Assembly (NCBI GenBank): GCA_030674455.1
Contig: JAUSGQ010000007.1
Location: 19,947-83,946, forward strand
DNA from: a bacterium
Lineage (GTDB): Bacteria > Patescibacteriota > Minisyncoccia > Phycocordibacterales > UBA2100
Length of the DNA: 64,000 nt
Direction of reading: 5' to 3'
The translations under genes and the position numbers were made by a program. This document shows, in pieces, positions 2,777-61,758 of the stretch. Below the pieces are notes generated by a model. That model had not been told where the DNA came from and searched no databases. It saw nothing but the letters and a program-made list of their open reading frames with translations. Numbering within the stretch: the stretch's first letter is position 1; each line of letters starts with the position of its first letter.

Positions 2777-4213
2777 TTGCTTCAACATATGCTTGACCTT
2801 GGAGAAAAGTGCGGCGTTTTTGGAGTTTACGGGGAAGGATTGGACGTCGCGCGTATAACTTTCTTCGGTCTATTTGCACTTCAACATAGGGGTCAGGAAA
2901 GCTCCGGTATCGCATCTTCTGATGGCAAACGCATTGAATCGCACAAGGGCATGGGGCTCGTCTCGCAGGTCTTTTCCGAAGACGACATAAAAAAACTAAC
3001 CGGCCATATCGCTATCGGGCATAACCGGTATTCAACTGCCGGTGGGTCTCATGCGGATCACGCGCAGCCGACTATCGTGGGCGATTGGAGCATAGCTCTC
3101 GCTCACAACGGCAATATTCCCAGCACAGCCGCTTTGGAGGAATTCCTTCGGGCTCGGAATATTGAAACTGACAAACTTTCTGATTCTAGAATGATAGCGC
3201 AGGCAATCGCCGTGCTTGAGGGTGAAGGAGCGACACTGGAAGACGCGATTAAGAAAGCGTACCCGCTTATGACAGGTGCGTTTTCAATTCTTATAATGTC
3301 GAAAGATAAGCTGATCGCGATTCGCGATGAGTGTGGAATTCGCCCGCTTTCAATCGCAAAGCTCAACGGCGGCTTTGTATTTTCCTCCGAGACATGCGCA
3401 TTTCAAACAGTTGGTGCGGAATTTATTCGCGATGTAAATCCGGGTGAGATGGTAGTAGTAGACGCGAGCGGTTTGCGCGGTGAACAGCTTGTTCCTGCAA
3501 ATCCGAAGTTGGACATATTTGAATTCGTTTACTTTGCTCGACCGGATAGTCATTTACTGGGGAAATCGGTCTATGATGTGAGAAGGAATTTCGGCGTACA
3601 ACTTGCCAAGGAATATCCGCTTCGCGCGGATGTGGTTATCCCCGTTCCGGAAACAGCGATTCCGGTGGCAATCGGCTACGCAAACGAGTCCGGCATTCCG
3701 CTTGAAATGGGGCTGACAAAAAATCGTTACATTCACCGCACATTTATTGAGCCCGAACAGCACATCCGCGACCAGGGGGTGCGAGCGAAGCTCACCCCCA
3801 TTGCTGAAGTTATTAAGGGCAAACGTGTTGCGGTTATCGACGATTCAATAGTGCGCGGCACTACCTCCAGAAAAATCGTCGAGATGCTTTTCGGTGCAGG
3901 CGCTTCTGAAGTGCATTTTCTCGTCTCTTCTCCGCCGATAATGTTCCCTGATTTTTACGGTATTGATACTCCAAAACAGAAGAATCTTTTGGCATCCGAT
4001 AAGTCAATTCTTGAAATGAAGTCGTACCTTGGCGCAACATCGCTTAATTTTCTCTCATACATTGGAATGATAAAAGCAACCGGAATTTCGGAAGACCAGT
4101 TTTCAACGTCGTGTTTTACCGGAGAGTATCCAATAGACATCAAAGAGCGCATGAAGGAAATTGTAGCTAAGAAAGTCTGCTATACGCCGTTTGCGGATAA
4201 ACTGTCGGATTGA
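2777..4213 (+). CDS. purF: amidophosphoribosyltransferase (glutamine PRPP amidotransferase)
   Basis: N-terminal CGVFGV nucleophile motif and a PRTase domain; 478 aa. Confidence 0.9.
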   Translation: MLQHMLDLGEKCGVFGVYGEGLDVARITFFGLFALQHRGQESSGIASSDGKRIESHKGMGLVSQVFSEDDIKKLTGHIAIGHNRYSTAGGSHADHAQPTIVGDWSIALAHNGNIPSTAALEEFLRARNIETDKLSDSRMIAQAIAVLEGEGATLEDAIKKAYPLMTGAFSILIMSKDKLIAIRDECGIRPLSIAKLNGGFVFSSETCAFQTVGAEFIRDVNPGEMVVVDASGLRGEQLVPANPKLDIFEFVYFARPDSHLLGKSVYDVRRNFGVQLAKEYPLRADVVIPVPETAIPVAIGYANESGIPLEMGLTKNRYIHRTFIEPEQHIRDQGVRAKLTPIAEVIKGKRVAVIDDSIVRGTTSRKIVEMLFGAGASEVHFLVSSPPIMFPDFYGIDTPKQKNLLASDKSILEMKSYLGATSLNFLSYIGMIKATGISEDQFSTSCFTGEYPIDIKERMKEIVAKKVCYTPFADKLSD

Positions 4214-4268
4214 TATAGGCAACTCTGGGAAAGGACATCGCACTCTGCAGACCGCGGTCATTGAGACA

Positions 4269-4799
4269 TTAGTCCGCCATGCCATCTATATCGTCTGGCA
4301 GCAGTAGAACGCTCAAAGAACTCTCTCGCGCCAAACCAAGCGATGGGCGATCCGCGAAACCCACATACTCTACCTTCTTTCCCTTATTTAGGACGTATTT
4401 GATTGCCGGAATTAAATCTGTGTCAGAACTCACTATAACGGCGGTATCATACTCGTCCTCAACTGCCCCTATAACGAGGTCAATGGCGATTTTAACATCC
4501 ACTCCCTTTTCTCTGATTTTGTGGTCATAAACAATTCTTCCCCGCTCGATGAGGAATCCTTGAAGCTCTAGTGCGCTAAGAAATTTCTGCTGGCCTTCAA
4601 CCATCTTTTGACTTTGTTCAGTCTGATCATGGTTGCGAACTACTCCGATATAGTATCGTTTTGTCGACAAAGAACGTCCGCGAAGCAGACGGTCAATGAG
4701 TTTCGCGTAATTAAATCTCTTGCCCGGGAAAATGCCGCACTCTTTTAGTCGTTGGTACAGATTCCCGCCATCTATAAAGATAGCTACTTTCTCCGCCAT
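4269..4799 (-). CDS. NYN/LabA-like (PIN-like) domain protein
   Basis: The motifs IFIDGGNL...VDVKIAIDLV...VSSDTDLIPAI are present. The track ORF extends to 4874, but Met at 4799 (MAEKVAIFIDGGN) is the likely start. Confidence 0.7.
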   Translation of the reverse strand: MAEKVAIFIDGGNLYQRLKECGIFPGKRFNYAKLIDRLLRGRSLSTKRYYIGVVRNHDQTEQSQKMVEGQQKFLSALELQGFLIERGRIVYDHKIREKGVDVKIAIDLVIGAVEDEYDTAVIVSSDTDLIPAIKYVLNKGKKVEYVGFADRPSLGLARESSLSVLLLPDDIDGMAD

Positions 4800-13238: not shown

Positions 13239-14477
13239 ATGCCGATTAACCACGCCATTCAAACGGCCTTTCGGGGGCTTAAAGCGAACAAAACACGCTC
13301 TGCACTCACCATACTAGGGATAGTAATCGGGGTCACGGCCATCATCATGGTGGTTTCGCTCGGGCAGGGCGCAAAGAACCTGATTTTAGGCCAAATTCAG
13401 GGTATTGGGGCGAAAACTATCGGCATTGTCCCGGGCCGTCAACCCAAAGGTCCGACTGATATTTTGGCAACGCTCACCGCGTCGCTAAAGGCGCGGGACA
13501 TCGTTGCATTGTCTCGAAAAGATAATGTACCGCATGCGCAGGACATCATGCCAGTAGTTTTTGGAAGCGAGACCGCGTCATACGGAGGTGAAACCTACAG
13601 GCCGACGATATTCGGGGGCAATGAACTGATGGCCGACATTTACGATTCGTATCCCGATCGCGGCAGAAGCATAACGGCAGACGACGTGCGCAGCTCCGCG
13701 GACGTGGTTGTCTTAGGTCAAACGGTAGTTGAAAAGCTTTCTCCCGACCATGACCTTTTGAACGAACGCATAAAAATCAAAGGTAGGAATTTCTTGGTAA
13801 TCGGAATACTTCCGAAAAAGGGCGGGGCCTCATTCATTAACTTTGATGAAATGGCGCTCATGCCGTACACAACCGCTCAAAATTATATTTTTGGCATCAA
13901 GCACTTTAATCGCGTGGTAGTAAGGGCTGACGATGAGTTGAATGTTGATGTGACTGTTAATGACATAAAGTCTACGCTTAGAGAACTGCACGGTATTACC
14001 GACCCGGAGAAAGACGATTTTGGCATTGAGACGCAGGCCGATGCACTGAAAACAGTCGGTACGATCCTCACCACCATGACGGTATTTCTGGCTATGGTTG
14101 CGGCAATATCGCTCGTAGTGGGAGGCATAGGAATTATGAACATAATGCTTGTTTCCGTGACGGACAGAACGCGGGAAATCGGGCTGCGAAAAGCGCTCGG
14201 CGCGACCAATAGAGACATTCTTATGCAATTCCTGCTTGAGGCAATCATCTTGACCGGCATTGGGGGAATCGTAGGCATTTTATTGGGTACCGGACTTTCA
14301 TTTGCAATTTCTTTAGTGATTACAAATGTGTTCGGTCTGATTTGGTCGTTTACATTCCCTCTAGGCGCTGCGATAGTCGGGATTCTAATTTCAACCATTG
14401 TTGGTCTTGTGTTCGGTCTTTACCCCGCTAGAAAGGCCTCACTGATGAGTCCTATTGAGGCTCTTCGGCACGAGTAG
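13239..14477 (+). CDS. ABC transporter permease, FtsX/MacB family
   Basis: MacB-type periplasmic domain and a C-terminal FtsX 4-TM domain. Confidence 0.85.
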   Translation: MPINHAIQTAFRGLKANKTRSALTILGIVIGVTAIIMVVSLGQGAKNLILGQIQGIGAKTIGIVPGRQPKGPTDILATLTASLKARDIVALSRKDNVPHAQDIMPVVFGSETASYGGETYRPTIFGGNELMADIYDSYPDRGRSITADDVRSSADVVVLGQTVVEKLSPDHDLLNERIKIKGRNFLVIGILPKKGGASFINFDEMALMPYTTAQNYIFGIKHFNRVVVRADDELNVDVTVNDIKSTLRELHGITDPEKDDFGIETQADALKTVGTILTTMTVFLAMVAAISLVVGGIGIMNIMLVSVTDRTREIGLRKALGATNRDILMQFLLEAIILTGIGGIVGILLGTGLSFAISLVITNVFGLIWSFTFPLGAAIVGILISTIVGLVFGLYPARKASLMSPIEALRHE

Positions 14478-14532
14478 CCTTTATTCACTTGCAGCGAATT
14501 CAAAGAGCGCGCTGGCTTTCATACGGGGCAGG

Positions 14533-14587
14533 CCCCGCTAGAAAGGCCTCACTGATGAGTCCTATTGAAGCCCTTAGACACGAATAA
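14533..14587 (+). pseudogene. duplicate of the permease 3' terminus (encodes PARKASLMSPIEALRHE*), part of a ~110-bp tandem duplication
   Basis: The first 37 nt are identical to 14423..14459. The last 6 codons differ only synonymously, so the peptide is identical. Confidence 0.75.
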
Positions 14588-14686
14588 ACTTAATTATCTT
14601 GCTGTGTAAGTTATTGATCACGCTGGCCTCCTTACGGGGCATGCGACCGCCAAAGAAACTTTCTCAATTTTGCCAAGACAGAATGT

Positions 14687-24590: not shown

Positions 24591-27287
24591 ATGTCAAAAA
24601 AAAACGAACATTCAGGGGAAGCCGAGAAAATCGTAGTTAAAGGCGCACGCACGCATAACTTGAAGAACATCACGGTAGAAATACCGCGGAATAAAATGGT
24701 GGTTTTTACAGGCCTTTCCGGCTCTGGGAAATCATCTCTCGCTTTTGACACCATATTTGCCGAGGGCCAGCGCAAATACGTGGAGTCTCTTTCTGCCTAT
24801 GCCCGTCAGTTCTTGCGGCAAATGCAAAAACCGGATGTCGATGAGATATCCGGCCTATCTCCTGCCATTTCAATAGACCAAAAATCGCGCTCGAATAATC
24901 CACGTTCCACAGTCGCTACAATTACCGAAATCTATGATTATCTGCGTGTTCTCTATGCGAGAGTAGGCAAACCTCACTGCACTATCTGCGGCAGGGAAGT
25001 TAAGAAACATACGAATGAGGAGATACTTGAGTCAGTTCTCAAAATAGTGGACAAGGCTCGAAAGTACCAAGGAGAGACCTTAAAATACCCAAGGTCTCAC
25101 CTTAAGGTTCAAGATAAGAAGCTCACAAAAAATGTATCGAGCGCAAAGGTCACAATAACGTCACCGGTGGTTGTCGGTAGAAAAGGGGAGTACTACCAGC
25201 TTCTTTATGACTTGCTCAATAAGGGATTCGAGAAAGTAATAATTGATGGCGAAGAGAAGAAGCTGCGTGAAAGAATCATTCTCGAGAAGAATCATAAACA
25301 CGATATAGATGTCGTGGTCGATGAAATATTTGTCAGTGAATTTGCCGACGATGCGAAAGCTGCGCGCGAACGGGCATCGGAAGCTATCGAAAGAGCTCTG
25401 CATGAATCCAATGGGCTGGTAAAGATAATAGGCGCGAGCGGAGAATCACACATTGTCTCGGCAAAGTTTATGTGCCCGTACGACGGATTCTCATTTCCTG
25501 AAATCGAGCCGCGGCTCTTTTCGTTCAATTCTCCGCATGGCGCTTGCCCCGCATGCAATGGCCTAGGTTCTAAGTATTTCTTTGGCGACGAGCCGTGCGA
25601 TGTGTGTAATGGTGCCCGGTTGCGTCCGGAGGCATTAAATGTGTTTCTTGGGACAAATAGTCGAGGAGACACCTCGCAAGCGAGGAGCCACCTCGACTCA
25701 CCCCATGGTCTGCATATTGTCGATTTAAGCTCGTCATCTATAGACGACGCAAAGAAATTCTTTGACTCGCTTAAACTTACCAAAAAGGAAGAGGAAATAT
25801 CCAAGGTCGTAATCAAAGAAATTATGAGCCGGCTGCGCTTTATGCAAGATGTCGGCATTGAATACTTAACACTCGACCGAAAAGCCAACACTCTATCGGG
25901 CGGTGAAGCACAGCGCATTCGTCTGGCATCACAGCTTGGAAGCGGGCTCGTTGGCGCGCTCTATGTGCTTGATGAGCCGACAATCGGGCTTCACCAGCGC
26001 GACAACGACAAACTTATTGAGACTCTCAAACACCTGCGCGATATCGGCAATACAGTAATCGTGGTAGAACACGATGAGGACACCATTTTCGCATCCGATT
26101 ACATCGTGGATCTAGGCCCTGGCGCTGGCATTCATGGAGGTAATGTCGTGGTGTCGGGGTGGCTCGATGAGCTATTGACCGCCAAATCCAATAAGTCCGG
26201 CTCGCGTACTCTTGCGTATCTACGTGGAGAGTCATCAATTGAAACGCCGGAGAAATGGCGAACTGCTGACAGAGGAAAGATAAAAATTCGCGGGGCTTCA
26301 AAATTTAACATTAAAAATATAAACGTTGATATACCGCTCGGCAAACTTGTGGCAATCACGGGGGTGTCTGGTTCCGGCAAGTCGACGTTTCTCTATGAGA
26401 TGCTTCATCGCAATTTGCTGGCGCGCTTTGATAAGCGGTACCGTACGGCAAAAATCTACAACTGCAAGGAATTCAGCGGAACGGAATATCTTTCACGCTC
26501 CATATTGATTGATCAATCGCCCATAGGAAGAACCCCGCGCTCAAATCCTGCAACGTACACAGGTGCTTTCACGCACATTCGCGACCTATTCGCGATGAGC
26601 GAGGATGCTCGAGCGCGCGGATGGGGTCCGGGACGATTTAGCTTCAATGTAAAAGGCGGGCGATGTGAGGTATGCCAGGGCAACGGCCTTGTCGCTGTCG
26701 AAATGCACTTTTTGCCGACGGTCTATGTCACATGCGACATGTGCAACGGAAAACGTTTTATGAAGGAGACACTTGATGTTAAATATAAAAAGAAAAGCAT
26801 TTATGACGTGTTATCCATGACCGTCGAAGAGGCCTCGGCCTTCTTTGAGGATGTTCCTGCAATATCTGACAGGTTAAAAACTTTGTCTGATGTTGGCCTG
26901 GACTATCTAGAACTCGGCCAGAGCGCGACAACTCTATCCGGCGGTGAAGCGCAGCGAGTGAAAATTGCGTCAGAACTATATCGGCCGTTGGATGCAAAAA
27001 CGATGTACCTGTTGGATGAACCCACTGTGGGACTCCACTACGACGACGTGCAAAAACTTATCGATATATTGCAAAAGCTGGTTCAGCGGGGAAATAGCGT
27101 CGTTGTTATCGAACACAATCTTGATGTCTTGAAATGCGCAGATTGGATTATGGATATGGGACCGGAAGGAGGCGCCGGAGGCGGCGAAATCGTAGCCCGA
27201 GGAACGCCGCTCGAAGTTTCTAAAACCGACGGCTCATACACCGGATATTATCTGAAGCGAGTTTTGAAGAGAAAGGTAAAAGATTGA
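24591..27287 (+). CDS. uvrA: excinuclease ABC subunit A
   Basis: Two ABC modules with zinc-finger Cys clusters. The start is set at Met 24591 to avoid overlapping the terminator. Confidence 0.95.
25660..25697. repeat. in-frame imperfect palindrome or direct repeat in uvrA (GTCGAGGAGACACCTCGC-AA-GCGAGGAGCCACCTCGAC), encoding [14 protein letters not shown]
   Basis: It uses the same CGAGGA/TCCTCG word as the uvrB insert. Relative to E. coli UvrA as I recall it, this region is about 18 aa longer. Confidence 0.55.
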
Positions 27288-27538: not shown

Positions 27539-30500
27539 TTATGTATATGCATCGACCGAGATAGATTTGAGTTCAGACGCCTTAATTCCTGCAAAAGCCA
27601 TGATGAATGCCTCGGCAAGCTGGCGATTGGTTATGAGCGGTATATTCAAGTCCACCGCTTTTCGGCGGATTATGTAGCCGTCTATCGCATCGCGGCCAAA
27701 TGCTTGAGCGGGAATATTTATTATCAAATCTACTTTACCTTTCTCTATAAGCGTTCCTACATTGGGCTCCTTGCCTCCGATTTTATAAACCTTTTCACAT
27801 GCAATTCCATTTTCTCTCATAAAATCGGCAGTATGCTCGGTGGCAAATAACTTGAAATTCATTTTGGCCAATTCTTGCAGAGCGGATAGTAATTTAATTT
27901 TATTTTCCTCTTTTCCCAAGGAAATCAGTATATTTCCCGACGCTTTGGTCGGGATCCCGACCTCGCTTCGCGAGCGTCGGGACTTATACGGCAATCTCCG
28001 ACGCTTTGGTCGGGGCAGGCGGAATCCTGAAGCAAGCATTGATTTAATCAGAGCTTCTGAAAATGTATCACCAAAACAAGCGACTTCGCCGGTAGAAGCC
28101 ATTTCCACGTTGGAAACGGGGTCGGCACCCTTTATGCGCGCATAGGAGAATTGCGGCGACTTTACTGCAATGTAATCAAGTTCAAGGGTGCGATAATCGC
28201 CGGAAACGTCTTTACCGAGCATCGCGCGCGTAGCAATATCAATAAAGTTATATCCCGTAGCTTTTGACACGAAAGGAAAGCTTCGAGATGAACGAACATT
28301 GCACTCAATGACTTGCAAATGGTTATCTTTTGCGATGAATTGAATATTGAACGGGCCGGTAATTTTCAGTTCTTTGACGACGTCCTTCGTGATGTGTTTA
28401 GCTCGTCGAATTGTCTCCATATATGTGCGCTGGGGAGGCAAAACCACCGTAGCGTCGCCAGAGTGCGTGCCGGCATTTTCGACGTGCTCCGTAATCGCGT
28501 AAATTATGAGCTTCCCGCGCGAAGCAACTCCGTCAATTTCAATTTCCCGCGCATTCTCGATAAATTTGGAAATCACGACCGGATGTTCCGTAGAGATATC
28601 AACCGCGCGTTTGAGAAAGCGCAAAAGAGATGTCTCGTCGTGCGCAACGCTCATCGCAGAGCCGGAGAGAACATATGACGGCCGGACAAGCACGGGATAT
28701 CCGATTCGCGCCGCAGCTATCGCTGCTTCTTTATGAGTAGTAAGTTCTACCCACTCGGGCTGATCAATTTCGAGCCTATCAAGAAGTTTAGAGAATGTGT
28801 GCCTGTCTTCGGCGCGGTCTATATCTTCTGGTTTTGTTCCCATGATTCTTACTCCTCGCTTATGCAGTGGGAGCGCGAGATTATTCGGAATTTGGCCGCC
28901 AGTAGAAATTACGACTCCTCGCGCTTTCTCAAATTGATAAATATCTAGAACACGCTCAAGCGAAAGTTCTTCAAAATACAGTCGGCTCGACATGTCGTAG
29001 TCGGTTGAAACGGTCTCCGGATTTGAATTTATCATTATCGTTTCGTATTCATTTTTTGAAAGAGTTTTTAACGCTTGTACGCAAGACCAATCAAATTCTA
29101 CCGACGAACCGATGCAATACGGTCCGCTTCCAAGGACGATCATACTTTTCTTGGTGCGACCTATATCATTCTCGGTCCCGTTATACGTCACATACAGATA
29201 ATTTGTTTTGGCGGGAAATTCTCCAGCCAAAGTGTCGATTTGCTTTATAACTGGCAGGATTTTGTGGCGCATTCGCTCCTGTCGGATCTTATCCTCAGTA
29301 CTTTTAATCAATGTGGCAATTTGAATATCAGAAAAACCAAGCTTCTTAGCCTCGAGCATGTCTTCTCTAAGAAGGTCTGACCTTCCAGGAAGGTCAGACC
29401 TTCTGAGATTTCTCGAGCAACGCATGATGTTCTTCATTTTTTCTAGAAACCACGGATCAATGCCGCCGGAAAGACGGCTGATCTTTGAGACGGACGTACC
29501 TCTGCGAAGTGCCTCTGCAATGGCAAAAATGCGGCGGGTAGTCGGGTGCTTGATTTCATCCAGATAATTTGCCACGCGAAAGTTACCATTTTTATGCGCT
29601 ACAAAACCATCCGCGCCAATGGAAAGCATACGAATAGCTTTCTGCAGTACCTCCTCAAAACTTCTGCCGATTGCCATCACTTCTCCCACACTTTTCATCT
29701 CCGTACCAATTTGCGTGATGGCATTCTCAAATTTCGTCAAATCCCAGCGCGGCATTTTAAGCACGATGTAATCAAGCGCCGGCTCGAAACAGGCCGTCGT
29801 GGATTTGGTTACCGAGTTTTTTAGTTGCGGCAGAGTAAAGCCCATTGCGAGTTTCGCCGCAATGAACGCGAGCGGATATCCTGTGGCCTTTGAGGCAAGC
29901 GCAGATGAGCGGGAAAGGCGCGCATTAACTTCTATGACGCGATAATCTCCGGTTTTCGGATGAAGCGCGTACTGTATATTGCATTCTCCCACGACGCCGA
30001 GATGCCTGATGGTCTTTATCGCGATTTCGCGCAAGCGATGATACTCCTCGTTCGTAAGAGTTTGTGACGGCGCCACGACCATACTTTCGCCCGTATGAAT
30101 GCCCATCGGGTCTATGTTTTCCATATTGCAAACGGAAATGCAGTTGTCGGTTCTGTCGCGCACAATTTCATACTCAACTTCTTTCCAACCGCACAAATCT
30201 TCTTCGATCAATACCTGCGGACTCGAGCCAAAGATTTCTGACAGTTTAGCGACAAGTTCTTTTTCCGTACGAACCACTCCGGAGCCAAGGCCGCCCAAGG
30301 CGAATCCCGCGCGCAACATGACCGGATAACCGATTTTTGTCGCCGCCTTTTTGGCATCAGATATATTTCTTGCTGCGAAACTTCGCGCTGTCTTAACATC
30401 AATTTTTTGCAGCCGCTTTATGAACATGTCTCTATCTTCTGTTTCGCGTATGACAGATACCGGTGTTCCCAAAACCTGCACTTTGTATTTAGAGAGAATC

Positions 30501-30838: not shown

Positions 30839-30843
30839 ATGAG

Positions 30844-30943
30844 TGCCAATCTACAAATGGACTCCAATCTACAAATAACTACGAATAAGCAATGCTCACA
30901 TTTGTAGCTATTCGTAGTATTCGGATGATTCGTAGATTGGGAC
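30844..30943. repeat. ~100-bp composite palindromic repeat (CCAATCTACAAAT ... ATTCGTAGATTGG), family copy R1 of 6, REP/BIME-like
   Basis: It shares words with the copies at 42502, 47001, 48156, 49350 and 61654, and it fills the carA-carB spacer. Confidence 0.85.
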
Positions 30944-32238: not shown

Positions 32239-33561
32239 ATGTCGCGTGAGTATACTGGAAACATGGTGCGCGATGACTTAATCAAATTTAAATTGCCCGA
32301 CAGTCCGGGTATATACTATTATCGAAATTCGAGGGGCAAAATTCTATACATTGGTAAAGCTACATCTCTGCGCGACCGCGTACGGAGCTATTTTTTGTCA
32401 GGTCTATCGGAATCTCGAAGCACGGCAATCGCAGCAATGATAGATGAGACGCACTCCGTCACATGGCAAACGACCGAGTCGGTTCTTGAAGCTCTGATAC
32501 TCGAAGCGAATGAGATAAAAAAACATCAGCCGAAATACAATGCACGAGAAAAGGACGACAAGAGCTTTAATTTTCTCGTAATCACAAAGGAAGATTTCCC
32601 GCGCGTTTTAGTAATTCGCGGCCGCGAACTATTTTCTCCACTTATCGCTAATCGCTATTCGCTAACCGCTATCTTCGGCCCATATCCGCAGGGACGTTCA
32701 CTGCAAGAAGCTCTGAAAATCGTTCGGAAAATATTTCCTTTCCGCGATAAATGCATTCCATGTGACACTGCGGAAAAATCCTTACTTTCTAATTCGCGCG
32801 AATTAGAAAGTAAAGAAACTCATGTACATCTTAAACATAAATGCAGGCCGTGCTTCAATCATCAGATAGGATTATGTCCCGGTGTATGCAGTGGGGAAAT
32901 ATCAAAAAACGATTATGCTCGAACTATACGACACATTAAGACTCTATTTTCAGGGAAAATAAAGAGGTTGAAGAGGGATCTGGAACGAGAAATGAGAGCC
33001 GAATCGAAAGCCGAGCGATTTGAAAAGGCCGCCATATTGCGTCGACAAATTGGTTCGTTAAACCACATACGCGACGTATCGCTAATAAATAACGATAACA
33101 TGGCCGATTTACCCAGGAAACCTACGAGGATAGAGGCGTATGACGTGGCACATACGTCGGGATCGGAGACAGTAGCCGTAATGACTGTTGTGAATAATGG
33201 CGAGCCCGAAAAGAGTTCCTACAGAAAATTCAAGATTCAAACTGCTGCAAACGACGACATTGGAGCACTCAAAGAGGTTCTCTCACGCCGCCTGGCGCAC
33301 TCGGAGTGGCCCTTGCCGAGCGTGTTTGTTGTGGACGGAGGAACTGCGCAATTGCGTGCGGCCGCAAATATTCTAAAAGACGCTGGTATAATGATTCCCG
33401 TGGTATCTGTGGTAAAAAACGAATTTCATAAACCCGAACGGCTCATGGGAGATACGAATGCAATTAAGACCTTGGGAAAAGAAATTCTTCTTGCCAATCA
33501 AGAAGCGCATCGTTTTGCGATTACGTATCATAGAAAACGACGAGGTCGACTAACGATATGA
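32239..33561 (+). CDS. uvrC: excinuclease ABC subunit C, short form lacking C-terminal HhH
   Basis: GIY-YIG motif (PGIYYY...ILYIGKA), a UVR domain and an RNase H-like endonuclease domain. The track start at 32206 is also possible. Confidence 0.85.
   Translation: MSREYTGNMVRDDLIKFKLPDSPGIYYYRNSRGKILYIGKATSLRDRVRSYFLSGLSESRSTAIAAMIDETHSVTWQTTESVLEALILEANEIKKHQPKYNAREKDDKSFNFLVITKEDFPRVLVIRGRELFSPLIANRYSLTAIFGPYPQGRSLQEALKIVRKIFPFRDKCIPCDTAEKSLLSNSRELESKETHVHLKHKCRPCFNHQIGLCPGVCSGEISKNDYARTIRHIKTLFSGKIKRLKRDLEREMRAESKAERFEKAAILRRQIGSLNHIRDVSLINNDNMADLPRKPTRIEAYDVAHTSGSETVAVMTVVNNGEPEKSSYRKFKIQTAANDDIGALKEVLSRRLAHSEWPLPSVFVVDGGTAQLRAAANILKDAGIMIPVVSVVKNEFHKPERLMGDTNAIKTLGKEILLANQEAHRFAITYHRKRRGRLTI
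32782..32813. repeat. perfect 32-bp palindrome TTACTTTCTAATTCGC|GCGAATTAGAAAGTAA in frame in uvrC (encodes LSNSRELESK)
   Basis: TTCGCGCGAA core, as in the intergenic copies and the yggS copy. Confidence 0.8.
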
Positions 33562-42496: not shown

Positions 42497-42501
42497 ATTG
42501 T

Positions 42502-42597
42502 CCCAATCTACGAATCATCCGAATACTACAAATGACTGCAAATACTCGCATTTCTTATTCGTAGACATTTGTAGATTGGAATCCATTTGTAGATTGG
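42502..42597. repeat. composite GTAG-palindromic repeat, copy R2, filling the recR-dnaB spacer
   Basis: It has the words CCAATCTACGAAT and ATTTGTAGATTGG, the latter twice. Confidence 0.85.
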
Positions 42598-42601
42598 CAC
42601 T

Positions 42602-45537: not shown

Positions 45538-46998
45538 TTGCATATCACTGCTGGGCAATGTTCTGGAAATGGTATAATTGTATATATGGCAGACACGCCC
45601 GTGCATGGTCCTCCTTCGGACGTAAAGAAGTTTTTTAACGCGATCAAATCCTTTGACTGGGATGAGTGGAACGATTATTTCTATTTTTGGGGAATTTCGC
45701 GATTTCTATATCACACAATAATTTTCTTCGGCTTATTGGGCATTCTGTCGCTACAAGTCCCAAATCTATTTCTTTTTGCAACAGGGTGGCTAATTGGAAC
45801 CGCACCCATTTGGCTTCCGATAGCCATGCTAATCGGATTCTACGAGATATGGTTCTGGTATGTCCGCTCGAATTTTATTTTTCATAAAAAACCGGTGCTG
45901 TTGGAGATGAGGATACCGCGCGAAATCACCAAATCTCCCCGAGCGATGGAAACAGCGCTCACGAATTTATGGGTGCCTCAAGGAGTCACGACGCTATACC
46001 AGCGAATGTTTAAAGGAATGGTTCTACCATGGTATTCGCTGGAAATGGCCTCCTTGGGGGGTGAAATTCACTTCTATATTTGGGTCTGGCAGGACTGGCG
46101 AAAGATAGTCGAGGCAACTCTCTATGCGGAATATCCTGAAATCGAACTGCATGAGGCGGAAGATTATGCACAAAAGTTTGTTTATAACCCAGAGACGCAG
46201 ACGTGCTACGGATGCGGGTGGCGGTTAGAACCGTATAATCCAAAAGTCAGATATATAGACGCGTACGTGATGAAAACATATATCGACTTGGAGCTCGATA
46301 AAGACCCAAAAGAGGAATTTAAAATTGACCCGCTTGCAGAAGTTCTGGAGGTTATGGGTTCCATGAACAAAGACCAGCAGATGTGGATACAGTTTCTGAT
46401 AACTCCGGAATTTAAATGGGGCAAACTTAGTCCAAAAGAAAGCGATTGGTCGGCTAGGGTTAAATGGGAAGTGGAGAAAATCCGCGCGACATCGCTCACG
46501 TTCTCTAAAGAGGCAGAGGCATTGCTCACAGAACGCCAGAGAATGCTCGCCCGCCCGAGGCCGACGTGGGTTCAGGAACATCAACTGGAGACCATGCAGA
46601 GAAATCTCGGCAAACATCCCTTTGCAGTGGTCCCGCGCGGGATTTTTATATCGCCGCACAAAGATTTCGGCGTGCGATTTTGGGACATGCGATGGATATG
46701 GCGGCCATTTGCAAATCCGCAGTACATGACACAAATGCGTAATCGCTGGTATCACACGGTAATGGATTATCCGTGGCAGGACTTTCACGATATGCGCTGG
46801 GAAATGCTTACCAAACGCTTTATTGATGCCTACAGGCGCAGGTCGGGCTTTTACAGCCCATGGGATTTTCCTCCGAATGTTATGACAACTGAATTACTCG
46901 CGACGTTCTATCATCCGCCAAGCAGTTCAATCAAAGTGCCGGGCCTAGTCCGCATTGAATCAAAGAAGTCTGCGCCACCGCCGAATCTTCCACAATAA
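45538..46998 (+). CDS. large Trp-rich membrane-anchored hypothetical protein
   Basis: 486 aa with N-terminal TM helices. It has no recognisable family, and the start is uncertain (Met 45586 is possible). Confidence 0.4.
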   Translation: MHITAGQCSGNGIIVYMADTPVHGPPSDVKKFFNAIKSFDWDEWNDYFYFWGISRFLYHTIIFFGLLGILSLQVPNLFLFATGWLIGTAPIWLPIAMLIGFYEIWFWYVRSNFIFHKKPVLLEMRIPREITKSPRAMETALTNLWVPQGVTTLYQRMFKGMVLPWYSLEMASLGGEIHFYIWVWQDWRKIVEATLYAEYPEIELHEAEDYAQKFVYNPETQTCYGCGWRLEPYNPKVRYIDAYVMKTYIDLELDKDPKEEFKIDPLAEVLEVMGSMNKDQQMWIQFLITPEFKWGKLSPKESDWSARVKWEVEKIRATSLTFSKEAEALLTERQRMLARPRPTWVQEHQLETMQRNLGKHPFAVVPRGIFISPHKDFGVRFWDMRWIWRPFANPQYMTQMRNRWYHTVMDYPWQDFHDMRWEMLTKRFIDAYRRRSGFYSPWDFPPNVMTTELLATFYHPPSSSIKVPGLVRIESKKSAPPPNLPQ

Positions 46999-47000
46999 GT

Positions 47001-47114
47001 CCCAATCTGCAAATATATTCCAATCAACGAATGAATCCCAATCTACAAATGGCTACGAATGGACAATGCTTACATTTGTAGTTATTCGTAGTATTCGTAT
47101 CATTTGTAGATTGG
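47001..47114. repeat. composite GTAG-palindromic repeat, copy R3 (ends 7 nt before the mltG start)
   Basis: Same family. Confidence 0.85.
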
Positions 47115-47120
47115 AACTCT

Positions 47121-48152: not shown

Positions 48153-48155
48153 AGT

Positions 48156-48266
48156 GCCAATCTGCGAATGATACGAATACTACGAATGGCTACAAATGTG
48201 AGTGTTGATTATTCGTAGTTATTTGTAGATTGGAATATATTCGTAGATTGGTACTTGTTAGATTGG
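48156..48266. repeat. composite GTAG-palindromic repeat, copy R4
   Basis: Same family. Confidence 0.85.
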
Positions 48267-48273
48267 AACATGT

Positions 48274-49392
48274 ATGTCAAAAACAGTTTTCGTTGGTTTG
48301 TCGGGTGGCGTCGATTCCGCCGTTTCGGCTGCGCTGCTTAAAGAGCAAGGCTATAACGTCGCTGGCGTATTCATAAAAATCTGGCAACCTGAATTTATAG
48401 AATGCACGTGGGCGAAAGACCGTCTGGACGCGATGCGCGTTTGCGTTTCGCTCGGAATCCCGTTCCAGGAAATAGACCTTTCATCTGATTACAAACGCAC
48501 GGTTGTGGACGACATGATCTCCGCATATTCGCGCGGCATCACTCCAAATCCGGATGTCCTGTGCAATAGACACATAAAATTCGGCAGTTTTATGAACTAT
48601 GCGCGCAAAGAGGGTGCGGATTATATTGCGACGGGACATTACGCCCGTGTCGCCTTAGGCGACCGCAGATTTACGCAGAAAGAACCCAAAAACGTATACA
48701 AATTATTAAGAGGGTCAGATAACAATAAAGACCAGTCATACTTCTTGTACTTATTGAAACAGGATGACCTTGTGCATACGCTATTCCCCGTGGGAAATCT
48801 TTTAAAGTCAGAGGTAAGGAAGCTTGCAGCTAAGTTTTCTCTTCCTGTTGCAGAAAAATCCGATAGCCAAGGATTGTGCTTTGTCGGCGATGTGACGATG
48901 AAGGATTTTCTCTCGAGATATATGAAACTCGACGAAGGAAAAGTCATAGATACAAATGGCACATGCATAGGCAGTCACGAAGGAGCTGCGCTTTATACGA
49001 TAGGACAACGACACGGATTCACAACCGAGCGCCTTGCGGGTGACAGAACCCCGTACTATGTCGTCTCTGTTAATATTCCCGCGAATACAATAACTGTTTC
49101 CACAAGGCGCGACGACGCAACGCAAAAAGATATACGCATCGACTCAATGCATTGGATATCGGGCGCTCCGGAAATGCCGTTGCGCGCACAAACACAGGCG
49201 AGATATAGAGAAAAACCGAGCGAAGCAACAATTTCTGTAGAGGGTGGAGGTGTGAGCGTTGCTTTTGATGAGCCGCAAATTGCCGCGGCCGGGCAATCGA
49301 TCGTTGTGTATAACGACGACACATGTTTAGGCGGAGGCACCATAGAGTACCAATCTACGAATGAATTCCAATCTACAAATAACTACGAATAA
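48274..49392 (+). CDS. mnmA: tRNA-specific 2-thiouridylase MnmA. The last ~14 codons (YQSTNEFQSTNNYE) are encoded by repeat copy R5.
   Basis: PP-loop SGGVDS and MnmA domains. The ORF reads into the repeat before reaching a stop. Confidence 0.9.
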   Translation: MSKTVFVGLSGGVDSAVSAALLKEQGYNVAGVFIKIWQPEFIECTWAKDRLDAMRVCVSLGIPFQEIDLSSDYKRTVVDDMISAYSRGITPNPDVLCNRHIKFGSFMNYARKEGADYIATGHYARVALGDRRFTQKEPKNVYKLLRGSDNNKDQSYFLYLLKQDDLVHTLFPVGNLLKSEVRKLAAKFSLPVAEKSDSQGLCFVGDVTMKDFLSRYMKLDEGKVIDTNGTCIGSHEGAALYTIGQRHGFTTERLAGDRTPYYVVSVNIPANTITVSTRRDDATQKDIRIDSMHWISGAPEMPLRAQTQARYREKPSEATISVEGGGVSVAFDEPQIAAAGQSIVVYNDDTCLGGGTIEYQSTNEFQSTNNYE

Positions 49393-49444
49393 TCATTTCT
49401 CCACATTTGTAGCCATTCGTAGTATTCGTGCATTCGTAGATTGG
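49350..49444. repeat. composite GTAG-palindromic repeat, copy R5
   Basis: Same family. Confidence 0.85.
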
Positions 49445-49459
49445 GACTATACTATTTAA

Positions 49460-51977: not shown

Positions 51978-52712
51978 ATGATTATGACCGAGAAGCAGGA
52001 ACAGGAATCGGACGTTAAGATGGAAGAATCATGGAAAAACGCGTTAAAGGATGAATTCGGGCAGGACTACTTCAAGCAACTGCGGGAATTCGTCAAAGGC
52101 GAGTACAAGCATGCCATCGTGTACCCGCCGCCAAAGAATATCTTTCGCGCGTTTGAGCTTTGCCCCTTTGATAAAGTCGAGGTTGTGCTACTCGGACAAG
52201 ACCCATATCACGGCCCGAAACAGGCAAATGGACTCTGTTTCGCAGTGAGCGAAGGGCTTGCTCTACCGCCCTCTCTTCAGAATATCTTTAAGGAATTGGC
52301 CGCAGATATGGGATTGTCCCACGATGCCTTGCTTGCCCGTCGAAGCCTTGGCGAAGTCGGGGCGAAGAAGGGTGGAACTCTTGAGGATTGGGCCAAGCAA
52401 GGTGTTCTACTACTCAATGCAACATTGACCGTGGCAGCGCGCGCGCCCGGTTCGCATCAAGGAAAGGGGTGGGAAGAATTTACCGATGCGGTTATACGCA
52501 AACTTTCTAACGAGCGCGAGAATCTAGTCTTTATTCTTTGGGGCAACTACGCAAAAGCCAAAGGCGCGCACATCGACCGCACCAAGCACCTCGTCATTGA
52601 ATCCGCGCACCCTTCGCCTTTTTCCGCCGACCGCTTCTTCGGCTCTAAACCTTTCAGCAAAACGAACGAATATCTGAAAGCCCACGACAAAAAGCCGATT
52701 GATTGGTTGTAA
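51978..52712 (+). CDS. ung: uracil-DNA glycosylase, family 1
   Basis: GQDPYHGP, LLLNATLTV and HPSPFSA motifs, with C-terminal KKPIDWL. Confidence 0.9.
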   Translation: MIMTEKQEQESDVKMEESWKNALKDEFGQDYFKQLREFVKGEYKHAIVYPPPKNIFRAFELCPFDKVEVVLLGQDPYHGPKQANGLCFAVSEGLALPPSLQNIFKELAADMGLSHDALLARRSLGEVGAKKGGTLEDWAKQGVLLLNATLTVAARAPGSHQGKGWEEFTDAVIRKLSNERENLVFILWGNYAKAKGAHIDRTKHLVIESAHPSPFSADRFFGSKPFSKTNEYLKAHDKKPIDWL

Positions 52713-52713
52713 T

Positions 52714-52742
52714 CTTCTACCAAGGTCTTACCTTGGTAGAAG
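52714..52742. repeat. 27-bp GTAG-type palindrome CTTCTACCAAGGT-CTT-ACCTTGGTAGAAG (REP-like, left flank of RAYT). It begins 2 nt after the ung stop, and its right arm encodes the RAYT C-terminal LLPR.
   Basis: The palindrome is visible. Inverted-centre copies lie at 53439..53465 and 53235..53258. Confidence 0.85.
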
Positions 52743-53420
52743 TTCGTTATCATCTTGCCGAGCATATATTTTTGCCTCCTCGATAAGTTGGTCAATCGTT
52801 TGCGAAGCATCGAGTATTTCCAACACCGGCTCTTTGTTTATGATAGAGGACTCCGGACGCGTTCCTGAGTAGTCGAGAAAACTGGAGTACTGATACTCCG
52901 ATAAAAATTTCCGCAAATTCTTTTCGTTCTGTATCGAACATTGTTTCCATTTCGGCTCTATTAGCTCTGCAGGGTTTGCATGAATATAACTAACTACTCT
53001 ATTTAGATTCTGATCCGACTCTATTCGTTTCGCCTTAAAGGTGCCTTGAAACAATGCTCCGTTACGTTCGTATTTGATATTGAAGTACATCGTGTAGCCC
53101 GTTCCGAGCTGTCGCATAAAGGATGTGATGCCTCCATAATTATGTTCACGTAAAAACAGGTGATGATGGTTTGGCATCAGGCAGTACGCGCCAATGTCCA
53201 CGAGTTTTTCTTTTCTCTCAACTGCCGCCACGAGTTCTACCAAGGTCTTACCTTGGTTGATGTTGCTGATATGTATTGGTTCGCGACTGTTACATGCATA
53301 TAGAAGCATCACAAATCGCTCGTAGTCTTCTGGATTTGTGAAAACGACCCGCTTATCAACGCCGCGATTGTAGCAGTGATACCATTCGTTCGGTGCGAAG
53401 GAAATTGTTCGCTGTCCCAT
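52728..53420 (-). mobile_element. IS200-like HUH tyrosine transposase (REP-associated tyrosine transposase, RAYT-like)
   Basis: WYHCYNRG (YHVxxRG-like), HUH motif CLMPNHHHLFL and catalytic-Tyr region YIHANPAE. The track ORF starts at TTG 53510, but the likely start is Met 53420. Confidence 0.75.
53235..53258. repeat. internal copy of the RAYT-flank palindrome (TTCTACCAAGGTCTTACCTTGGTTGA) in frame inside the RAYT gene (encodes INQGKTLVEL)
   Basis: Same word, with arms degenerate by 2 nt. Confidence 0.7.
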
Positions 53421-53438
53421 ATCGATAATAATAACATG

Positions 53439-53465
53439 TTCTACCAAGGTAAGACCTTGGTAGAG
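53439..53465. repeat. right-flank palindrome TTCTACCAAGGT-AAG-ACCTTGGTAGAG (centre inverted relative to the left copy)
   Basis: The REP pair is in inverted orientation around the RAYT gene. Confidence 0.85.
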
Positions 53466-53484
53466 ACTTCCAGTGGATAAGAGT

Positions 53485-53574
53485 TTCTTCGGCTCAAAAC
53501 CCTTAGGCAAGACGAATGAATACCTTGTGGATCTTCCAAAGGTCTCTCCTCGAGAATTCAGTATTTTGAGGTGA
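53485..53574 (+). pseudogene. diverged duplicate of the ung 3' terminus (encodes FFGSKPLGKTNEYL... then diverges)
   Basis: About 80% nucleotide identity to ung 52634..52680 (FFGSKPFSKTNEYL). There is no upstream coding context. Confidence 0.7.
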
Positions 53575-53730
53575 GGCCTTGGGGATTTTTAAGGTTTAAC
53601 CTTGGTTGCATAACGAGTTTTCTCTCCCTTTACTGACTACGTACTACTAACTACTGACTGCCAAGCCAATTGACTCTCTCTCTCTGATTTGAGATAGTGT
53701 CGCCAGTCGACCTAATGCATTAGGTCTTAT

Positions 53731-61446: not shown

Positions 61447-61653
61447 ATGGCCGAACAAGAATCTGTGGAAGGAGTTGTTGAGGAAGCTCTTCCGAATACG
61501 CTTTTTCGAGTGAGAATGCCGTCGGGAGAATTAGTAATCGCGTATCTGGCCGGCAAGATGCGCCTGCACAGGATAAAAGTCCTTGTGGGAGATAAGGTTT
61601 CCGTGCATCTCGACCCATACGGAGGTCGCGCGCGAATTATAAGGAGGGTTTAG
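61447..61653 (+). CDS. infA: translation initiation factor IF-1
   Basis: S1-like domain (GVVEEALPNTLFRVRM...). Confidence 0.9.
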   Translation: MAEQESVEGVVEEALPNTLFRVRMPSGELVIAYLAGKMRLHRIKVLVGDKVSVHLDPYGGRARIIRRV

Positions 61654-61749
61654 TTCCAATCTGCAAATGAATTCCAATCTACAAATAACTACAAATGAGA
61701 AAGCGGATATTCGTAGCCATTTGTAGTATTCGTATCATTCGTATATTGG
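61654..61749. repeat. composite GTAG-palindromic repeat, copy R6, between infA and rpmJ
   Basis: Same family. It starts immediately after the infA stop. Confidence 0.85.
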
Positions 61750-61758
61750 TACATATTT

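Follow-up and report, generated by a model that had tools for sequence, protein, structure and literature searches.

Among domesticated transposases that have a population of short DNA replicators of their own, the best-studied are the REP-associated tyrosine transposases (RAYTs) with their repetitive extragenic palindromic (REP) sequences. To our knowledge, work on RAYT/REP systems has been confined almost entirely to Proteobacteria, Cyanobacteria and Bacteroidetes, and no prior description of one in Patescibacteria, also termed the candidate phyla radiation (CPR), was found in the literature searched. REPtrons, in which REPs flank their RAYT, their single-copy vertical inheritance and in-frame REPs in host genes and inside tnpA_REP genes have been published (PMC6006769, PMC5581495, PMC3733652). 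The in-frame REPs inside tnpA_REP genes were described for subclass 2.4, which is Bertels group 4 (Quentin et al. 2018, PMC6006769), and dual REP inserts were described in uvrA genes (Di Nocera et al. 2013, PMC3733652). The present analysis concerns a RAYT-like gene and the hairpins around and within it in a 64-kb stretch of the patescibacterial contig JAUSGQ010000007.1, the whole of which is referred to below as the window. The locus is probably a REPtron-like unit of Patescibacteria in which a gene for a predicted RAYT-type class-2 TnpA_Y1 single-stranded DNA (ssDNA) nuclease/ligase is accompanied by its cognate REP-like hairpin. The most fitting description is a REPtron-like unit in minimal, low-copy form, which belongs to a large CPR family and includes a co-evolving hairpin in frame.

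The RAYT-like gene and its hairpins

The RAYT gene has the ung gene, with which it is convergent, on one side and an M16 peptidase gene on the other (Table 1). Its protein matched Pfam Y1_Tnp (PF01797) with an E-value of 3.9e-8 and 33.9 bits, above the cut-off of 23 bits. The earlier note on this DNA had read the gene as a RAYT-like HUH transposase, an IS200-like Y1 enzyme with HHH as the HUH motif and YIHANPAE as a further motif, and the reading as a RAYT-type Y1 HUH protein was borne out by the Pfam match, by the class-2 tyrosine motif and by the fold described below. Residues H85, H87 and Y145 were invariant across 25 aligned homologues. The C-terminal tail domain carries a YxYSS motif, and no helix-turn-helix (HTH) domain was detected in it by the Pfam search. 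In the alignment the homologues all start near 'M..R..FAP.EWYHCYNRG', and a 260-aa version of the open reading frame (ORF) with a TTG start was rejected as it runs antisense to the ung-tail remnant and is unsupported by the homologues.

A search of the PDB by sequence with the single RAYT protein gave no matches, and the weakness of sequence-only searches made a fold search necessary. An AlphaFold model built on 25 homologues had a pLDDT of 87 and a pTM of 0.87, and its best PDB match was 4er8_A (E 3e-6, TM 0.66), a structure of the E. coli TnpA_REP in complex with a REP hairpin, with the ISDra2 and IS608 TnpA proteins ranked behind it. There were 2260 database relatives at E<=1e-3, and those with a source name were almost all from Patescibacteria or unclassified metagenome-assembled genomes. 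Between the RAYT gene and its relatives the nonsynonymous divergence (pN, 0.09-0.20) was far below the saturated synonymous divergence (pS, 0.70-0.86), which indicates strong purifying selection on the gene.

Three copies of the palindrome CTACCAAGGT-NNN-ACCTTGGTAG were located within 750 nt, namely hairpin U on the upstream side with its end 20 nt from the ATG, hairpin G inside the gene and hairpin D at the stop codon. Hairpins U and D were complementary at 26/26 positions, and the coordinates and flipped centre (CTT versus AAG) given for this flanking pair in the earlier note hold. The left copy had also been noted to overlap the RAYT stop and adjoin the ung stop, and indeed the RAYT stop TAA (52728-52730) spans the loop of hairpin D while the extended stem begins one base past the ung stop codon. 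Hairpin D encodes the C-terminal L-P-R-stop of the RAYT protein, and the homologues likewise end in LPR-stop or SR-stop coded by their own hairpin. The in-frame third copy was confirmed as hairpin G, which codes for (I)NQGKTLVE at residues 54-62.

A search of the window with CCAAGGTNNNACCTTGG at up to 2 mismatches gave 5 matches compared with 0.11 expected, and 0/100 shuffles reached 5. Folding as DNA gave -13.3, -7.7 and -10.5 kcal/mol for hairpins D, G and U, respectively, with z scores of -7.5, -3.8 and -4.8. All three are singlets and none forms a doublet. A fourth, degenerate copy had been proposed as well; a weak remnant is present there, with the mismatches and stem given in Table 1, and by its folding score it was on its own indistinguishable from chance. 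The extended -10-like element TGTTATTAT between hairpin U and the ATG is a putative promoter, in which case hairpin U would cover the -35 region. Both flank hairpins scored as terminator-like, and hairpin D was flagged as terminator-like for ung.

Arrangement and concerted evolution across the family

DNA was collected for 57 distinct homologous loci with enough flank, labelled L### and nearly all from Patescibacteria, and the longest exact word that the stop region has in common with the 150 nt before the ATG was determined for each. This flank word was at least 12 nt in 51 of the 57 loci and usually 17-29 nt, compared with 8-10 nt in unrelated comparisons. The common word was the hairpin, with an upstream copy that ended 12-33 nt before the ATG in most loci and a second copy across or just past the stop codon. 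Its sequence was locus-specific and differed from locus to locus, with a recurring apex of AGG(T/G/A)-loop-(A/C/T)CCT, i.e. AGGN-loop-NCCT, and a loop of 3 nt in most cases. The sequence TGnTAnnnT occurred no more than 30 nt upstream of the ATG in 21/57 loci compared with 2% of random 30-nt windows. The REPtron-like cassette of about 750 nt, which consists of a hairpin, a promoter-like -10, the ORF and a hairpin over the stop, is a conserved unit of this family of more than 2000 proteins.

GTAG, the word by which the earlier note named the palindromes, is present in the window, but it forms the 3' foot, paired with a 5' CTAC, of a stem CTAC...GTAG that is symmetric throughout. It is clade-specific and is not the canonical 5' GT[AG]G guide. 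Most hairpins of the family are without GTAG, including TCCAAGGT, TACAAGGT, GTCAAGGA and GCGAAGGA. Similarly, the REPtron-like layout behind the claim of an inverted REP pair typical of RAYTs recurs in the 51 loci, but inversion was rejected as a rule for the family. Where the flank word measured 15 nt or more, the two copies were direct in 21 loci, inverted in 18 and ambiguous in 7, and all three copies were direct in the closest relative, L002. The flank element was an inverted hairpin doublet in L009, L015, L023, L025, L036, L040, L053, L056, L064, L070 and L085, where it forms a REPIN-like super-hairpin of 17-22 bp; a REPIN consists of two inverted REPs that are set apart by a short spacer and together fold as one larger hairpin. 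L064 also has one such doublet within the gene itself, in frame and close to its 3' end (LRSDLQIWRSDLT).

An internal copy was a further feature of about a third of the loci (18-20/57), in which the flank and the gene interior had at least 12 nt in common, nearly always within nt 153-210 and in a single codon register. This register is CAA-GGT-nnn-ACC-TTG, encoding Q-G-x-T-L, and register-matched copies that each resembled their own flanks were present in L002, L006, L011, L017, L022, L025, L026, L028 and L043. The encoded peptide tracks the local hairpin, with QGKTLVE in the window, QGRTLVD in L002, QGSTLEE in L006, QGLPLD in L022 and REGGSFA in L043. The surrounding segment 'PIHxSN..QG.TL' was of equal length in homologues down to 48% identity, and a recent or private REP insertion was rejected as the origin of the internal copy given this lack of a length difference and the conserved register. 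In the model of the protein hairpin G takes up the last part of loop 44-59, which has the lowest confidence, and the first turn of a short helix (60-66), before β2 and the HUH motif. The site is predicted to be a surface loop upstream of HUH. The internal copy had decayed in the close relatives L003, L121 and L124, which have perfect flank hairpins, and this decay or loss indicates that it is dispensable.

The gene-strand loops of the three copies were compared between the window and its relatives. They read CTT, AAG and AAG in hairpins U, G and D of the window; CGG in all three copies of L002 (84% identity); GAG in all three of L119 (75%), which has a second downstream copy with CTC; and CTC in U and GAG in D of L003 (68%), where G has decayed. 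The loop change in L002 brings a K-to-R substitution in the protein, and the internal loop was flipped (tga/tca) between the near-identical genes of L063 and L065. Loops that match within a locus and differ between relatives indicate homogenisation within each locus after the lineages had split, i.e. concerted evolution, and identity of U, G and D by recent common descent is contradicted by the same pattern. The 20-nt hairpin arms were identical in the window, L002, L119 and L003 although synonymous sites were saturated, which points to a DNA-level constraint on the arms. Palindromic arms permit exchange in either register, and this accounts for the loop flips and for the similar frequency of direct (21) and inverted (18) pairs.

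Mobility, dispersed copies and other repeats

One copy of the RAYT gene was present in the window. The order M16 peptidase, small ORF, RAYT, UDG (uracil-DNA glycosylase), PDDEXK and MgtC was maintained in the window, L002, L003-5 and L120, while the gene was found between atpC and RNHCP in L119 (75% identity), beside gap in L121 (60%) and between yebC and ruvC in L124 (55%). Synteny in some relatives and other contexts at these identities suggest that the cassette has moved over long time scales and not recently. One GTDB genome holds two divergent paralogues, L056 and L072. In L124, from Kaiserbacteria, the whole cassette (4001-4705) lies between yebC and ruvC, which are usually adjacent genes.

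A scan of metagenomes for the exact palindrome gave 33 loci, of which 4 adjoin a RAYT and 29 are lone copies. Lone copies were located in frame in carB (LPRS[HD]LGR) and in a purL-like gene (LYQGLTLVE), and others were a few bases past stop codons or upstream of fmt. Within the window, in-frame doublets were identified in uvrA and carB (Table 1), and the carB doublet is at the site orthologous to the intact CTACCAAGGT...GGTAG single copies of relatives (L087, L093, L101 and L118). By comparison with E. coli CarB, the uvrA and carB inserts presumably lengthen the protein little or not at all.

The last 75 nt or so of ung (52635-52712) were duplicated beyond the RAYT cassette (53485-53570), just outside hairpin U. 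The copy marks the outer edge of a block of about 850 nt that comprises the ung tail, hairpin D, RAYT and hairpin U. The duplicate is present and intact in L002, where it reads FGSKPFSKTNEYLVTHNKKPIDWL-stop, while the window copy has decayed. No such flank repeat was found at the other loci compared, where the remaining top scores were hairpin extensions, and the idea that cassette insertion generally leaves a target-site duplication was rejected, as the repeat is limited to the window and L002. This distribution dates the duplication to the ancestor of these two. At the same position L003, L120 and L094/98 have a shorter UDG, of 196-199 aa, whose tail is different, and the duplication suggests an in-situ replacement of the UDG type or a local re-insertion of the 850-nt block.

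The earlier note had also named this RAYT as the candidate mobiliser of the composite repeats of about 100 nt, and no support was found for that proposal. These repeats are built of the words CCAATCTAC[AG]AAT / ATT[CT]GTAGATTGG and CTAC[AG]AAT, fill inter-ORF gaps and form long hairpins with imperfect pairing, at z scores of -5.4 to -6.3. They have no CAAGGT/ACCTTG core and no hairpin core in common with the RAYT palindromes, and none flanks the RAYT gene. Their words were essentially absent from 717 kb around the relatives' loci except for one site upstream of carB. The composite repeats were therefore rejected as REPs of the RAYT, being of other sequence, without the core and without a copy beside the gene. 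A second palindrome family also has CTAC...GTAG at its foot, and two of its copies are 1.07 kb apart. A search of the whole window against Rfam gave one tRNA only and nothing for the CTGATGAG repeat even at E<=1.

Table 1. Coordinates of the RAYT locus and of other features in the 64-kb window
Feature	Position	Strand	Description
RAYT-like Y1 HUH gene	52728-53420	minus	ATG start, 230 aa, Pfam Y1_Tnp
HUH motif H85-H86-H87 (preceded by N84)	53160-53168	minus	from homologue alignment
Y motif YIHANP (Y145)	52971-52988	minus	class-2 Y---NP signature
Hairpin U	53440-53464		TCTACCAAGGT-AAG-ACCTTGGTAGA on the plus strand (gene-strand loop CTT), 11-bp stem
Hairpin G	53236-53260		in frame inside RAYT ORF, codons 54-62, one arm mismatch (GTTG)
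Hairpin D	52714-52742		13-bp perfect stem, plus-strand loop CTT, straddles RAYT stop
Decayed hairpin remnant (proposed fourth copy)	53586-53608		5/20 mismatches, 5-bp stem, z -1.7
Extended -10-like element TGTTATTAT	53428-53436	minus	between hairpin U and ATG, read from the sequence
ung	51978-52712	plus	Pfam UDG, stop codon 52710-52712
Pseudo-copy of ung 3' tail (FFGSKPLGKTNEYL...)	53485-53525	plus	83% identical to 52635-52675
Degenerate hairpin doublet in uvrA	25064-25108	plus	in frame, opposite loops GAG/CTC, z -4.1
Diverged doublet in carB (AGAAGGTCnGACCTTCT twice; RRSDLPGRSDLL)	29367-29407	minus	in frame, opposite loops, z -7.6
Composite palindromic intergenic repeats, about 100 nt	30842-30943, 42499-42600, 46998-47117, 48153-48254, 49346-49447, 61652-61752
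Second palindrome family AACTACTTGCTTATTCG-CG-CGAATAAGCAAGTAGTT	1541-1581, 2610-2650, 32775-32815		14-16-bp perfect stems
70-nt direct repeat	14423-14492, 14533-14602		86% identity, spaced 110 nt, contains CTGATGAG, a hammerhead-like word

Interpretation and comparison with described systems

Under the REPtron-like reading the RAYT protein would bind the hairpin on ssDNA in the manner of TnpA_REP. A cleave-and-rejoin activity, short-patch gene conversion or both would then copy and homogenise the hairpins, preferentially near the enzyme's own gene. The copy inside the ORF would be tolerated and repeatedly re-converted rather than an essential site, and the flank copies may also act as a terminator or insulator beside ung and over the gene's own -35 region.

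Several observations weigh against this reading. The protein scored 44.1 bits against NCBIfam NF047646, the REP_Tyr_transpos equivalog, where the cut-off is 80 bits, and would by its sequence be a distant relative of the curated RAYT set. A profile-based sequence search of the PDB barely reached the solved TnpA structures, with marginal E-values of 0.04-0.11, and enzymatic activity across the whole family is predicted. The homogenisation could be ordinary recombination without the enzyme, and two thirds of the loci are without an intact internal copy. No further intact hairpin copies were found in the 64-kb window, and 200 kb of the relatives' flanks (±3 kb) held 4 near-exact copies more than 300 nt from the gene, all of them within about 1 kb. 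The hairpin is thus not abundant, its genomic copy number is low at best, and a REP population together with its RAYT is not demonstrated for this genome.

An autonomous insertion sequence (IS) of the IS200/IS605 type, with the hairpins as its left and right subterminal ends and present transposition of the whole unit by peel-and-paste, would account for the compact, hairpin-bounded cassette and for relatives of 55-75% identity at unrelated intergenic sites (atpC/RNHCP, gap/x and yebC/ruvC). The end hairpins are direct in about half of the loci, as are IS200/IS605 ends, and the block of about 850 nt with its duplicated ung tail resembles an insertion scar. We consider this explanation unlikely, as the element is single-copy in the window and has no tnpB, and its position is unchanged down to 68% identity with saturated synonymous divergence (dS), which argues against recent movement. 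Furthermore, the tyrosine motif is the class 2 Y---NP and not the Y---Q of IS200, the ends are identical palindromes rather than a distinct left end (LE) and right end (RE), and the fold is nearest to TnpA_REP and not to the TnpA of IS608 or ISDra2. The possibility that the hairpins are ordinary transcription signals, i.e. a terminator where ung and RAYT converge and an upstream operator or insulator, with the ORF similarity incidental and no action of the transposase, is consistent with the terminator-like scores of both flank hairpins, with the placement of D exactly between two convergent stops and with that of U just upstream of the -10-like element. It leaves unexplained the identity of hairpins within a locus and their difference between loci (51/57), the in-frame palindromes in carB, purL and uvrA and the tie to one Y1 HUH gene family, and is therefore regarded as extremely improbable.

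The internal copy might instead be a selected self-recognition site that lets the enzyme regulate or switch the gene that encodes it, whether by binding or cleaving that gene's coding strand or its mRNA, or by an excision or inversion that involves the U and G or the G and D copies. Its position and frame are fixed across very divergent loci, it follows the flanks even at the cost of amino-acid changes, and the family-wide G-x-T-L protein motif is the translated apex of the hairpin. An intact copy is nevertheless limited to about a third of the loci and has decayed in L003, L121 and L124 despite perfect flanks, the site is the least confident surface loop of the model and so consistent with mere tolerance, and the loci examined showed no variants with a deletion or inversion between copies. 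Such a role thus appears quite improbable. It is likewise doubtful that CPR-wide RAYT-type enzymes carry their own recognition hairpin as codons (Q-G-x-T-L) at a fixed site, with enzyme-mediated exchange keeping the three copies matched. If true, this would constitute a self-referential specificity module in which the specificity of the enzyme and its target co-evolve and the target is written in the gene for the enzyme, with possibly a self-limiting switch via cleavage or excision at the internal copy.

The REPtron-like reading matters in that a very large family of Patescibacteria (more than 2000 proteins) would have the REPtron architecture in a minimal, low-copy form while its motifs match a subclass reported without REPs. 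Three copies in 750 nt, one of them coding, that change together offer an unusually clean read-out of concerted evolution. Two questions thereby become testable: how RAYTs or recombination copy REPs, and what the enzyme reads, the AGGN/NCCT apex or the variable loop and foot.

The locus shares with the E. coli TnpA_REP (RAYT, YafM) the Y1 HUH fold, the class-2 Y---NP motif, a gene, single-copy in the window, between cognate palindromes and what appears to be vertical inheritance over some evolutionary distance. It differs in its identity of about 14% and in an extra C-terminal domain of about 80 aa with YxYSS. The stems are symmetric, of 10-13 bp with 3-nt loops, and have no bulge and no 5' GTAG guide; no abundant REP population was seen in the 64-kb window and the flanks are not consistently inverted. 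The IS200, IS608 and ISDra2 elements have the same catalytic fold and hairpins at both ends of a unit of about 0.7 kb, while the Y---Q motif, many near-identical copies, distinct LE and RE and often a tnpB, which are features of IS200/IS605, were not seen here; no tnpB was present in the ORFs neighbouring RAYT. In IS200 a hairpin upstream of the gene blocks read-through, and the upstream hairpin here could do likewise. In-frame palindromic inserts such as the Rickettsia palindromic elements and the REPs in uvrA and repair genes resemble the in-frame copies in uvrA, carB and the purL-like gene. The Rickettsia elements measure about 100-150 nt and have no tie to a RAYT, whereas the inserts here, of 23-45 nt, lengthen the host protein little or not at all.

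Subclass 2.4 is alike in that REPs flank and lie inside the gene with the frame kept, in a peripheral variable region (PMC6006769). It has REPs of the long or 'double foot' GT[AG]G type and occurs mainly in Cyanobacteria and Bacteroidetes (PMC6006769), whereas the internal copy here is upstream of HUH in one fixed register, without length change, and co-varies with the flanks. The motifs (NH[FYH]H, F-Q and YIHANP) and the short stems are also different, so that the phenomenon is common to both and the subclass is not. Subclass 2.1 (Bertels group 1; TIRYT/TIRtron) is alike in its NH[YF]H, FQ and Y[IV]HxNP motifs, a length of about 238 aa and a C-terminal SS motif (PMC6006769), and TIRtrons are alike in having terminal inverted repeats (TIRs) at a fixed distance from the gene, some of them self-complementary (Di Nocera et al. 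2013, PMC3733652). No nearby REP-like sequences are reported for that subclass, which has a TIR consensus of GGGGWSAS and an HTH-like distal part, in contrast to the AGGN/NCCT hairpins here. The family would fit subclass 2.1 or Bertels group 1, an assignment by motifs alone and not by phylogeny. This is not a new kind of system, as REPs in frame within uvrA and within tnpA_REP genes have been published before. It differs from what is known in its fixed-register internal copy, short symmetric hairpin, very low copy number, Patescibacteria host and subclass 2.1-like motifs.

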